A DNA stretch of 64,000 nucleotides from a virus, in the IMG/VR virus record IMGVR_UViG_3300021425_002093, positions 1 to 64,000 of that record; one strand, given 5' to 3'. Both the position numbers and the translations under genes were made by a program. Below are positions 1,801 through 16,175 of the stretch, in pieces. The notes under the pieces are model-generated. The model saw only the letters and a list, made by a program, of their open reading frames with translations. It was not told where the DNA came from and searched no databases. Position 1 is the first letter of the stretch. Each line of letters starts with the position of its first letter.

Positions 1801-4800
1801 TTATGTTGCTTCGATTTCGAAAGCAACTGTCTTTGTGGCGAGTATAGTATTCGGAGCATCTTTTAGTCTAACCTGCACAGTGAGATTTGCACCCCTAAAC
1901 CCTAAATTACCAACTTGCTTCTCTTTAGATATTCCAAATGTATAAGGAGTACTTCCTGTGAAGTTACCGAGATTAACCCAGTTCGGAACTAATGGATTGG
2001 TCGTAGTTGTTCCTACCATATCAGATTGAGTCAGACCCGCATCTAGACCAGTAGCGAATACATTAATTTGAAGATCTGAGTTGGCATATCCGCTTTTCCA
2101 TGTTCCGCCATTTCCAAAAACGCTAGAGCAACCCGCTGGAACAGAGAATTCTTCTAAGAACGTGCCACCATCATATAATCCAATGATCGCAAATACTTGA
2201 GTAGTTGCTGGACAACTAGAAGAAGAGGTTCCAAGGAGGGCTAAAGGTAATCCGCTAAAGTCTACCTCTATGGGATTCCCGACTTCATCAAGTGCTGTAT
2301 TTCGAGTCAAAGTAGTAGACAAGCTTACGCTTGTGCTATCGGTAGCAGTAGCATCCTGCGTAGATGTTATATCGACATTAAACGACCAGCTTTTATTAAT
2401 TAAAGTGTTTGCTGTGTTTGTTTGGGTAACCTCTGCTTCAATCACAACTCCCGCAGTATCACTTATTGTGGCAGTCGCTGTACTGCTAGTTACTGTAGTT
2501 CCATTTATTTTTAGTGTAGTTGGGTTCCCTGCTGTATTATTTGGATAGTTAATGCTACTTAGGTCTATTGTATAAGATTGTCCCGCAGGAACATTGGTTG
2601 GTAGCCAAGTTCCTACAGTAGTCCAATCTGGCGCTGGCGGATTCGCCGCTGTGCCAGTTGTTTGAACTTGTCCAGTTGGTAAGAATCTGATTTTGGCTCT
2701 CGCTTCTCTATCAGCAGGACTTTCAGTTGCTAAGGTTTGTTCAATACTTGTTCCGGACTCTGAATAAGGATCACTAGTAAATACAGGGGCTCCAGCCTTG
2801 ATGAATATCTGAGTACTTAAAATTCCGGAAGCATTTCCGTCATTATCATTGAATCGAACTTGACCCTGTAGTCCGTATAAGTAGTCACCAAGAGTAACGT
2901 TTCTAGGTTCGGTTAGCACGCCTTGTGCGTTTGGAGTAGCAGATACCCAAGGGGTGACAATATCATCGATTGTGGTTCCAAATTCCGGATCTCCAGAAAT
3001 CTGATGCCCCAAGTATCTGACTTCCCAAGTTGAATTGTTAATTCCGTTAGGATCAGTGATATCACCGATATAAACATATGCGTCCTCTGTATAGATACCA
3101 TTGAACGCATTACCTGCGATATCACTTAATATCGGATCACCCTCTGCAGCGCCATCCGTGATGTTATTCATCGTAACTGCAACCTCGCTAAGATTCGCTC
3201 CAAGAGTCGGACTTCTTACGATGAGTCTGAGTATGCCATCAGAGGTTAGCGACGAGTCTTCTATCGTGTTTACTGTAATCGTTGATTCATATCGCTGATT
3301 CGGCTCGCTGAATGTCCACACGATAGGATCTACAATTGTAGCAAGCGCCGTGTTATTATTGTCTGCTTCTGCCTGAGTATAGATTCCACCATCGCCGCCG
3401 TTGCCGACTTCAAGAGATCTAACTCGAAGTACTTCGTCGCCTTTGACGTTAGTACCAGTAATTGTTACATCGAAACTCGATCCTTCGTTCGCTGAAGTAG
3501 GACTGGTTAAGAAGAGCGCTGTAGGATCGGTGTTATTCAAATCAATTGTAAGTGATTGTGTCGCACCAGAATTAGAGCCAGTTACAGTAAACGTTAGATC
3601 GCCAATCTTATCAGCACCAGATGAGTATTCATTATCAATAGTTGTAGTAATATCTACATCAAATGCTGTTGCAATAACGCCAGCGGCATTTGCGGCTATC
3701 GACCCAGTTGCATTGGACACTTGTGAGAGAACTTGAGTAGATCCAGTGATCTCCCAATCATAAGTTTCAGCAACAGCATTTGCGACATCGAAGCTGAATC
3801 TAGTAATTTGACCTTCTTCGACTGAAGTATTATTATTCGTTACAGTGAAGTTTGTAGCGTTAGTGACTGTAACTGTATTTGAAACGATAGCGGACTCAAC
3901 ATTGTTAAACTGAGAATCACCAACAGCAGTTCCGATAGAATCCGTAACGACAACACTTACAGAGAAGTCTTTATCGACATCATTCGTAAGATTTGTTGTA
4001 TATGTATCAGTTGTCGCAATATTTCCACCAGTGGTTTGTACTACAACAGGATTTCCCCCACCGATGTCGCTTCGAGTCCATGTGTATGTGTAATCTGAGA
4101 TTCCGTCTCTGTCCGATATATTGCTAGCGTCAGCCAAGAGAGTTACACCAGGCGATAGTGGATCAGTTTCCGGCTCGGCTCTCAATTCTACAATTCCAGT
4201 TGCGGGGAAGTTTTGCGCTGGACCGAGTACATTACTAAATCCGTCATATTCAATGATACCTAGCCCGATTGCCGAAAGATCAAGCGTTTCAGTTGCTTTA
4301 AGTCTAATTTGGTCTCCACCGAATGCGTTAAACGCTGTTACTGTATATGTTGCATTATCTTCGCCTGGAATGTCTTGCCAAAAAGAACCCACTAGCCTCT
4401 GCCAGTTTACTGACGGATTTCCGGGTGGATTGAAAAAATATGTTACACTAGATGTTAGAGTAGATCCTTGATAAACATTTGGAGCATCATTGGGGTCTAA
4501 GAATATATCAACATATGGCTCGATTGAGAACGCCTCTACAGTTACAGAAGCTGATGTGAGTATTACTTCGTCGCCAGGTAGCGCACCATCTAGAAATTTA
4601 ACTTCAGCTTGCCATTCTTCTCCTACCGCACTAGCTGTGGCAGTGATACTAAGAACACCATTAACATTGGGATCACTTGAAGCTACAAACGCTTCACTTC
4701 CAGTTGGATTTGTCAAATTCGTCCACTTGACTTCCCAGCTTCCAGCGGCTATTCCGTCTGTGTCACTTATACCCGATACGTTGACATATAATTCACGTCC

Positions 4801-14264: not shown

Positions 14265-14596
14265 TAGTGGTCCGTTGGGTAACAAGGTGGACCAAACCCC
14301 GCAGAGCTTAAGCCGCTAGTGCGACATCTCCGTAGTAATCGTCATTTGCTGCGATTATTTTTTTGAACCCTGTTTTTACAGACGGCGTTCATCGTCTGAT
14401 CCTCAGTATTGCTTTTGGTCGTCCGTCGAATCTATAACGCCCCCATCAGATAAACACTGTGTCGGATTTCCACCCACATACCCGGCGGCCGGGATCTTGA
14501 TCGTAGACTAAAATGACTACTCTTTAGATCAACAGTGTTCATCTGGTGGAGGCGAGGGGATTTGCACCCCTGTCCGCACTTCCTAATGACAACACG
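14265..14596 (-). ncRNA. ssrA: two-piece (circularly permuted) tmRNA
   Basis: Acceptor piece GGACAGGGGTGCAAATCCCCTCGCCTCCACCA ends at 14544; coding piece starts GGGGGCG...GATTCGAC at 14444 (G3-U70, A73); tag frame (A)ANDDYYGDVALAA* at 14352-14308 after AAAAAAATAATC. Outer ends approximate. Confidence 0.93.
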
Positions 14597-14671
14597 TCAT
14601 CGAATACTAAAGTACATGGTGACTTCAAAGCCAGCACGTACATCAATTGCTTTAGGTTTTGTCCACTTCAT
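14597..14671 (-). CDS. pqqA: pyrroloquinoline quinone precursor peptide PqqA
   Basis: MKWTKPKAIDVRAGFEVTMYFSIR*, 24 aa; WTKP...GFEVTMY with the E-x3-Y core; TAAGGAGGT RBS. Confidence 0.92.
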   Translation of the reverse strand: MKWTKPKAIDVRAGFEVTMYFSIR

Positions 14672-14690
14672 AATAGTGACCTCCTTAGAG

Positions 14691-14698
14691 TATTTATA
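14691..14698 (-). promoter_or_regulatory. T4 late promoter for pqqA-ssrA
   Basis: TATAAATA about 20 nt upstream of the pqqA ATG. Confidence 0.8.
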
Positions 14699-14731: not shown

Positions 14732-14760
14732 ATATTACACTAAAATTACGTCTATGTCAA
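14732..14760 (-). promoter_or_regulatory. sigma70-like promoter for pqqA-ssrA
   Basis: TTGACA-17 nt-TAATAT. Confidence 0.65.
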
Positions 14761-14996
14761 GAGATTAGATCTTCTGTTATCAAGATATCTTGTACGCCAT
14801 TAAAGTACTTAGTCAGCGTTGACAACTTTTCATCAGCTTCAGCCAGTTTGACTAACTCGGATTCTACTGCTTCCATGATATCAGGATGCTCTCCGATTCC
14901 AACCGGATGGGTTAGATACACTTCAATGTTTACTTTATGATACTCAATTTCGCCTTCAAGCTTGCGTATCATTGCTGAGATAATCTGTGATCTCAT
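14757..14996 (-). CDS. conserved phage hypothetical protein
   Basis: VNIEVYLTHPVGIGEHPDIMEAVESE. Confidence 0.8.
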   Translation of the reverse strand: MRSQIISAMIRKLEGEIEYHKVNIEVYLTHPVGIGEHPDIMEAVESELVKLAEADEKLSTLTKYFNGVQDILITEDLIS

Positions 14997-15140: not shown

Positions 15141-15217
15141 TGGCTCCCGAGGTAGGATTCGAACCTACGACATGCAAATTAACAGTTTGCCGCTACTACC
15201 AACTGAGCTACTCGGGA
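15141..15217 (-). tRNA. tRNA-Asn(GUU)
   Basis: TCCCGAG/CTCGGGA stem; GCAAA-CTGTTAA-TTTGC; GGTTCGAATCC; CCA. Confidence 0.95.
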
Positions 15218-15546
15218 ATATTAACTAAACCTGCGTGTACTTCTGAATGACAATTGCCACATAACATCACGCATTTATCTAACTCTTCTTTTATCGACTC
15301 CCATTTTCTGGTGTGTCCATGAGAAGAGATGCCGAAATCTTTTTCGTCTGGATCACGATGATGGAATTGTAACGCTCCAACATACTTATCGTATCCACAT
15401 ATCGAACAAGCGCCGCCCATATACTCAACTGCTTTAAGTTTCAGATTCTTTCTGAATCTATCTACAGCCGCTTTGTTCTTACATTTAACAGAGCAGTACT
15501 TTCTTACTGCTTCATTTTCACACAAGTGCCAAGAACATTTTTCCAT
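15208..15546 (-). CDS. HNH (homing) endonuclease
   Basis: CSICGY, LQFHHRDP, LCGNCHSEVH; late promoter at 15585-15592. Confidence 0.88.
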   Translation of the reverse strand: MEKCSWHLCENEAVRKYCSVKCKNKAAVDRFRKNLKLKAVEYMGGACSICGYDKYVGALQFHHRDPDEKDFGISSHGHTRKWESIKEELDKCVMLCGNCHSEVHAGLVNIPE

Positions 15547-16100: not shown

Positions 16101-16175
16101 TGGTGCCGCCACCAAGAATCGAACTTGGTTCTGAGGTTTACAAGACCCCTGCATCACCATTTATGCTTTGGCGGC
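16101..16175 (-). tRNA. tRNA-Thr(UGU)
   Basis: GCCGCCA/TGGCGGC stem; GGGGT-CTTGTAA-ACCTC; GTTCGATTC; ACCA. Confidence 0.93.

Follow-up and report, generated by a model that had tools for sequence, protein, structure and literature searches.

Two-piece tmRNAs are common in marine phages, one example being that of the OM43 phage Melnitz (PMC9004378), and viral PqqA has been reported from methylotroph phages of Lake Baikal (VP_266; PMC7678222). Viral pqqA and phage two-piece tmRNAs are thus both already published; what is new in the locus described here is their overlap, which was not found in the open-access literature: pqqA is not mentioned in PMC9004378, and neither that paper nor PMC7678222 links the two genes. 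The locus occupies the minus strand of a 143.9-kb contig (~80% complete) from an uncultured T4-like virus, within a stretch of 64,000 nucleotides that we analyzed as a whole and refer to as the window. Its tmRNA has the layout of the Melnitz-type two-piece tmRNAs of marine T4-like myophages (RF04321, RF01849), with an acceptor piece followed by a spacer and a coding piece, and shares with them G3.U70, A73, an encoded CCA, and a proteolysis-type tag, as well as the location among tRNA genes in a phage of ~140 kb. However, whereas the promoter of Melnitz is located directly at the acceptor piece, in the window the slot that separates promoter and first helix is taken up by a translated gene whose end falls within the tmRNA helix P2. 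Melnitz differs further in that its spacer contains an ORF and its tmRNA is followed by a glutamine riboswitch. In the Melnitz record MZ577097.1, the tmRNA spacer (~147 nt; L169 ~4132-4296) holds GGAGAAG and an ATG that opens an unannotated frame of ~54 codons, which continues into the coding piece and stops in the P2 region.

As in VP_266 and the Methylophilales phages, pqqA is a lone precursor gene in the window, in a phage without pqqB-E, and in both settings its likely role is to support the host's PQQ-dependent methanol dehydrogenase. In the small Methylophilales phages, however, the gene is followed by an ordinary GC hairpin, in place of which the window has a tRNA-like RNA. Melnitz (MZ577097.1 76134-76208; L170 701-775) has an intact pqqA (MKWTKPVAQEMRFGFEVTMYIMTR, with AAGGAGG), for which the record instead annotates a hypothetical protein (gene 152) on the opposite strand. 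Its leader is much like that of the window, and it is located 10 nt upstream of a tRNA-Leu, from which RNase P can separate it; in the window, in contrast, there is no RNase P site between pqqA and the tRNA-like RNA, and the frame overlaps the RNA. The placement of pqqA directly ahead of a tRNA-type structure is thus recurrent, and, judging from these gene arrangements, it is only in the clade of the window that RNase P would be unable to separate the two. Messenger RNAs with an aminoacylatable tRNA-like end are known from turnip yellow mosaic virus (TYMV) and its relatives, and SgrS/SgrT and RNAIII/hld are dual-function RNAs. Like these, the locus would combine a translated frame and a structured RNA on one molecule whose 3′ end could be charged. 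Unlike in the TYMV-type RNAs, the tRNA-like domain would need a second RNA, supplied in trans, in order to form, the carrier is a bacteriophage, and the arrangement is known here from the gene layout, which permits a translated pqqA frame and a CCA end on one RNA molecule.

ARAGORN predicted a permuted tmRNA at 14636-14217 (minus strand) with three tRNAs nearby, its permutation flag reflecting the gene order, in which the acceptor half, including the T arm and CCA, precedes the GGGG coding half. The Rfam model tmRNA_permuted (RF04321) matches at 14606-14308 (minus strand) over its full length (model positions 1-213 of 213) with 89.9 bits (gathering score 47), and the tmRNAs of relatives reach 90.6-118.7 bits. 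In the Rfam alignment, the core of the acceptor piece (14606-14544) comprises the P2 3′ strands, the T arm (14571-14555), the acceptor strand CGCCUCC, A73, and the CCA (14546-14544). The acceptor stem CGCCUCC-A-CCA pairs with GGGGGCG, and both G3.U70 and the discriminator A are present. In an alignment of 18 sequences, the T arm and the acceptor stem are 100% paired, and the U.G pair of the stem is invariant (18 of 18). An intervening segment of 99 nt between CCA and GGGGGCG (14543-14445) is predicted to be removed in maturation; it measures 12-99 nt among the closest relatives, with L030 at 12 nt, and a natural variant of the locus has a different segment of 98 nt. The spacer of the window also contains a 36-codon ORF (14542-14432), which has no Shine-Dalgarno sequence. 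The coding piece (14444-14250, minus strand; ARAGORN and Rfam) consists of the 5′ acceptor strand GGGGGCG, the P2 5′ strands, the pseudoknot region, and a tail hairpin, and its tag frame reads AANDDYYGDVALAA, with a hydrophobic ALAA-type tail and a UAA stop at 14310-14308. Downstream follow a 94-codon ORF with its own Shine-Dalgarno sequence (14239-13955, minus strand) and a cell-wall hydrolase gene (13913-13401; Pfam match), and a scan of the minus strand revealed no terminator between the tmRNA and the 94-codon ORF.

Immediately upstream, and extending into the acceptor piece, an ORF of 24 codons plus stop (14671-14597, minus strand; product MKWTKPKAIDVRAGFEVTMYFSIR) matches the Pfam PqqA family (PF08042) with 37.3 bits (cut-off 21.1; E 2.5e-9), the whole profile being aligned (positions 1-19 of 19). 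A Shine-Dalgarno sequence, AAGGAGG (14686-14680), precedes its ATG by 8 nt, and its stop codon UGA occupies 14599-14597. Just upstream of pqqA is a 79-codon ORF (14757-14996), part of which (14869-14939) is 80% DNA-identical to hypothetical genes of the cyanophages S-SSM4 and S-SSM6b. Using a search pattern in which Gly-x-Glu-Val-Thr-x-Tyr codons are tied to CCTCCACCA, we found the pqqA-tmRNA fusion in 13 further marine and estuarine contigs, namely, the viral contig L018 and 12 metagenome contigs. Together with the window, these hold seven distinct pqqA alleles, whose pairwise pN of 0.02-0.16 versus a pS of 0.22-0.81 indicates that they are under purifying selection and that the ORF evolves as coding sequence. 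PQQ is formed by cross-linking the Glu and Tyr of the Glu-X-X-X-Tyr pair of PqqA, and the corresponding E-V-T-M-Y is unchanged in all seven alleles; Trp, Pro, Glu, and Tyr are invariant, and the Shine-Dalgarno sequence is present in most of them. In codons 20-24 (TTT AGT ATT CGA TGA), synonymous change is nearly absent while the codons upstream are near saturation, and UUUAGUAUUC is without change at synonymous sites in the seven alleles. That codons 20-24 are nearly frozen at the DNA level suggests a double constraint, on the peptide and on the RNA.

The origin of such a constraint becomes apparent when both genes are placed on the same coordinates. The first-pass annotation had put the pqqA stop about 50 nt upstream of the tmRNA CCA. 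The measured distance from the stop to the last A of CCA is 53 nt (51-53 nt in every fusion contig), and the relation is closer than that claim implied: position 1 of the RF04321 model (14606) falls 10 nt inside the pqqA ORF, an overlap of equal length in L018, L151, and L163. Specifically, AUUC (14605-14602), the 5′ strand of the outermost P2 helix, which pairs with GGAU (14402-14399), doubles as the Ile23 codon and the first base of Arg24 of pqqA. The adjacent internal loop GAUGAC (14601-14596) contains the stop codon UGA and represents a family motif, G-N-U-G-A-N, present in 57 of the 70 distinct viral permuted tmRNAs, and beyond it the P2b strand GUGUUGU (14595-14589) pairs with GCAAUAC (14412-14406).

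Both helices that flank the stop codon display the signature of compensatory change. In the 18-sequence alignment, 93.4% of cells in the tmRNA structure are paired versus 81.0% after shuffling, with 14 pairs changed on both sides; none of 500 shuffles reaches any of five measures, and slid controls pair at 45-53%. The three P2 segments formed in trans between the two pieces are 82-94% paired, and 10 of their 17 pairs are changed on both sides. For the outer P2 helix, these values are 94% and two of four pairs, and five of seven pairs are changed on both sides in P2b. In duplex tests covering 52 distinct viral tmRNAs, whose outer strands comprise ~20 different sequences, cognate pieces paired more strongly than non-cognate ones both in the outer helix (mean −3.10 versus −1.67 kcal/mol) and in P2b (mean −4.78 versus −2.87 kcal/mol), with 0 of 10000 permutations in either case. 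A natural DNA variant of the locus carries changes at 14593 (G>A) and 14401 that turn two G.U pairs into A-U. RNAalifold on a plain MAFFT alignment of 71 distinct viral tmRNAs did not recover P2, which was tested instead with the narrower 18-sequence alignment and the anchored duplexes. Taken together, the alignment and duplex evidence indicates that the P2 helices on both sides of the pqqA stop covary, and that the last two codons and the stop of pqqA are built from tmRNA nucleotides. Since the stop codon is itself tmRNA sequence, the sole translatable pqqA mRNA must contain nucleotides of the tmRNA.

Two further pairings were considered. At first glance, the stop codon lies within a small hairpin (GAUGAC/GUCAUU), as the first-pass annotation had pointed out. 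The hairpin does fold in the window (−5.2 kcal/mol, z −1.8), and minimum-energy cofolding of the two pieces of the window favors it over P2b, so that folding in the window may be more complicated. As a conserved, functional element, however, it did not hold up: neither L018 nor L163 has it at the corresponding position, and the hairpin competes with the covarying P2b, of which its 3′ arm is a part. The second pairing connects the pqqA start region (14671-14654) with the tail that follows the tag stop (14299-14282; −20.3 kcal/mol, z −3.1) and is also favored by minimum-energy cofolding of the window sequences. In L018, L155, L151, and L163 the same pairing has z values of −0.9 to +0.7, and non-cognate combinations do equally well, so that we attribute it to chance.

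We then asked from where the two genes are transcribed. The nearest promoters were correctly placed upstream of pqqA by the first reading: a sigma-70-like promoter (TTGACA-17-TAATAT; 14760-14732, minus strand), which is a consensus match only (10 of 12 matches in the scan), and a T4-type late promoter box, TATAAATA (14698-14691, minus strand). This box occurs 13 times in the window versus 3.0 ± 1.4 expected, and 11 of the 13 copies are on the coding strand; in this enrichment and strand bias it behaves as a T4-type late promoter. The same TATAAATACTCT box stands ahead of a pqqA-less tmRNA in L002. Placing the start by analogy to T4 six bases downstream of the box, at ~14685, yields a predicted transcript of ~142 nt to the CCA (14685-14544), in line with the ~140 nt estimated beforehand, of which the acceptor core accounts for 62 nt. 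A consensus scan of the minus strand from 14671 to 14544 found neither promoter- nor terminator-like sites, which bears out the claim that nothing separates pqqA from the CCA. A separate promoter within pqqA had been named as the observation that would contradict a joint RNA, and the scan finds none. Two −10-like elements seen by eye (TAGTAT and TACTTT) lack a matching −35 element, and transcripts starting from them would begin downstream of the covarying helix, for which reason an internal promoter was rejected. With one promoter region apparently common to both genes and no internal promoter or terminator, co-transcription of pqqA and the acceptor piece as one primary transcript, as originally proposed, seems close to obligatory.

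The relatives without pqqA provide a reference for how such a transcript might mature. Among 70 permuted tmRNAs in viral contigs from IMG/VR scans, there are 14 pqqA-less cases in which 65-72 nt separate the end of TATAAATA from the CCA end, so that the predicted primary acceptor RNAs measure 60-67 nt and start at the first paired base. In the window this distance is 147 nt, the extra 80 nt being the Shine-Dalgarno sequence and pqqA. A late promoter directly at the first helix implies no dedicated 5′ processing step in these relatives, and, in the absence of such a step, pqqA would remain attached to the CCA-ending RNA after RNase P cleavage and 3′ trimming. Other members of the family point to some trimming: in L154 and L163, pqqA abuts the upstream gene and has no visible promoter of its own, so that longer precursors and some 5′ trimming are probable, and tmRNAs that abut long ORFs (L037 and L071) argue in the same direction.

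The fusion loci themselves are diverse. They occur in at least five upstream contexts, with TATAAATA, AATAAATA, or TATATAAT or in direct abutment to a gene (L154 and L163), and their tmRNAs are 69-93% identical, with varying spacer length and tag. The seven alleles, the varied contexts, and the tmRNA divergence suggest that the fusion is old and has been maintained in the clade; by the same comparison, it is conserved and under purifying selection in this phage clade. A bacterial source was ruled out by scanning the genomes of 185,579 bacterial species for the fusion pattern, which gave only two chance matches. The pqqA-tmRNA unit is always located in or beside a tRNA gene cluster (L151 109-264; L155 6454-6681; window 15141-15217 and 16101-16175). 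Two tRNAs of the window flank an HNH endonuclease gene (15208-15546), and the tRNA cluster with this gene is likely a hot spot for cassette exchange.

The slot occupied by pqqA is used differently elsewhere. L152, with pqqA, and L143, without it, share the same upstream gene end, the TATAAATA box, and a tmRNA that is 93% identical, and only the slot differs. In L143, the slot extension is 104 nt long, with a perfect terminator-like hairpin (AAACCUGUCAAUUAAUUGACAGGUUUUU) between TATAAATA and the first helix of the tmRNA (~40 nt). This hairpin might protect the 5′ end as a stem or be a genuine terminator; L142 has an extension of 81 nt. L030 is an L160-like locus in which the promoter, the Shine-Dalgarno sequence, and the N-terminal codons are deleted. 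The first-pass annotation had suggested checking whether related phages have other small ORFs at this position. Besides pqqA in the 13 further contigs, L037 and L071 each have an ORF of ~490-510 codons that uses the same UGA within the tmRNA as its stop, 51 nt ahead of the CCA end, and has a AATAAATA box within its last codons. A protein gene thus overlaps the start of the tmRNA in pqqA-less relatives too. These ORFs, unrelated to pqqA, could be taken to mean that pqqA is a functionless passenger, or is served by a separate promoter that escapes recognition, and that the overlap reflects compact packing only; phage genomes are compact, and the tmRNA is kept where pqqA is lost (L143) or truncated (L030). 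We nevertheless regard such a reading as highly improbable, given the strong purifying selection, the intact Glu and Tyr motif, the Shine-Dalgarno sequence in most alleles, and the persistence of the fusion across tmRNA divergence down to 69% identity. A separate promoter, for its part, is not seen inside pqqA, where a start downstream of 14605 would remove the covarying helix.

We therefore propose that pqqA is a host-derived auxiliary gene cassette that occupies the slot flanked by the promoter and the first tmRNA helix, giving a primary transcript in the order pqqA, acceptor piece, spacer, coding piece, and downstream genes. RNase P would cut this transcript at GGGGGCG (14444), and the spacer would be trimmed back to the CCA, yielding an RNA of ~142 nt that is pqqA mRNA and acceptor piece in one. 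This chimeric RNA, or its precursor if read co-transcriptionally, would be the only translatable pqqA message, and a first round of translation would be possible before the coding piece is transcribed. The role of the GC hairpin found after pqqA in bacteria and in the small Methylophilales phages would fall to the tRNA-like end and its pairing with the coding piece. Degradation or trimming of the mRNA part would then probably leave the 62-nt core known from relatives, so that a single transcription event would supply both a short-lived message for the peptide and a long-lived half of the tmRNA, and the PqqA peptide would feed the PqqB-E pathway of the host. We give about an even chance to this version, in which the chimera is a real but transient species whose mRNA part decays to the 62-nt core. 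For the mature end, the first-pass annotation had considered a 5′ end near 14590 as the result that would refute a joint RNA; such an end is unrealistic, as it would delete the covarying helices, and the realistic alternative is an end at ~14605, inside the penultimate codons of pqqA.

Two other fates of the transcript were weighed against this one. In the first, the ~142-nt RNA is itself the mature acceptor piece, paired to the coding piece, charged with alanine, and active in trans-translation while remaining a translatable pqqA message with the abundance and stability of a tmRNA. The pqqA-less relatives, with the promoter at the helix and no processing signal needed, speak for this idea, as do the extensions of the same slot in L143 and L142. 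PqqA is consumed at one peptide per PQQ made, so that a high level of pqqA mRNA would be useful. One-piece tmRNAs attach pseudoknots 2-4, ~200 nt in total, at P2, and by analogy the pqqA extension, which leaves P2 at that very attachment point, need not block function. However, for a ribosome to terminate at 14599-14597, the outer helix and P2b must be melted, so that a given molecule cannot be translated and function as tmRNA at the same time. In bacterial RNAs, 5′ regions that are translated and lack structure normally decay fast, and L154 and L163 imply trimming from longer transcripts. On balance, a stable chimera of this kind strikes us as possible but doubtful.

The second fate is a rapid, specific RNase E-type cut by the host at GU/AUUC (14606/14605), which would free the 62-nt core; pqqA would be translated mainly co-transcriptionally, and the stop-less pqqA mRNA left behind would become a substrate for trans-translation. 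The site GU/AUU fits the RN/WUU preference that RNase E reportedly shows in a cleavage map of Salmonella, the absence of synonymous change in UUUAGUAUUC would be compatible with a conserved cleavage site, and tmRNAs abutting upstream genes need some 5′ processing. Yet the motif carries little information, its AUUC is already constrained by pairing, and destroying a message that is clearly kept by selection looks wasteful, so that we consider this cut unlikely. A search of sequencing runs brought up 20 DNA runs that hold the locus and a single metatranscriptome with 4% of its words. From the latter, one 244-nt contig of the coding piece of a relative covers 14432-14190 only, contains no sequence of pqqA or the acceptor piece, and has no bearing on the acceptor RNA in either direction.

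No pqqC, pqqD, pqqE, radical-SAM gene, or PQQ-repeat dehydrogenase was found in the 144-kb record (~80% complete), which means that the PqqA peptide would have to feed a host pathway, with the partner enzymes PqqB-E presumably supplied by the host. When 50,697 phage records were searched by tblastn, PqqA-like ORFs turned up in 12, of which nine are Methylophilales/Methylophilaceae phages: Melnitz (four records), MEP401, MEP402, MEP301, Venkman, and P19250A. This nearly exclusive distribution makes such ORFs usable as a host marker for uncultured marine phages. Six of the 12 records were inspected, and all six hold intact pqqA ORFs, most of them unannotated. MEP402, Venkman, MEP301, P19250A, and a Manatee Spring podovirus (L172-L176, positions 598-669 in each) have an intact 23-codon pqqA that is not annotated as such, one of these records carrying a hypothetical protein on the opposite strand instead; in Venkman, P19250A, and the Manatee Spring phage, a hairpin after pqqA is visible by eye. 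Another contig, L171 (CAKLQF020000010.1, "Acinetobacter phage MD-2021a"), carries ppk, pqqA, pqqB, and pqqC one after another, as in bacterial operons, and looks like a bacterial chromosome rather than a phage. Among myophages, the ThyX of the window is closest to that of Melnitz (61% identical), and the host is probably a PQQ-dependent methylotroph of the OM43 type. In OM43 cells, the PQQ-dependent XoxF methanol dehydrogenase is the most abundant transcript (PMC5120137).

The locus would thus represent an auxiliary metabolic gene packaged in a new way, with the message for a peptide relying on a structural RNA for its promoter, its stop codon, and a stable tRNA-like end. In several deposited phage genomes, pqqA is not annotated. 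If the mature acceptor RNA is the pqqA messenger, it would be a natural bacterial-type mRNA with a working tRNA-like CCA end, and, should the joined RNA persist, it would constitute the first counterpart in the bacterial world of the chargeable tRNA-like ends of plant viral mRNAs and a new class of dual-function RNA. Termination on pqqA would then unzip P2, physically coupling the synthesis of a cofactor precursor and ribosome rescue on one molecule, and the layout offers a simple, testable system for the competition of translation with RNA folding. For the phages themselves, the finding points to PQQ supply as a bottleneck in the infection of abundant coastal methylotrophs.
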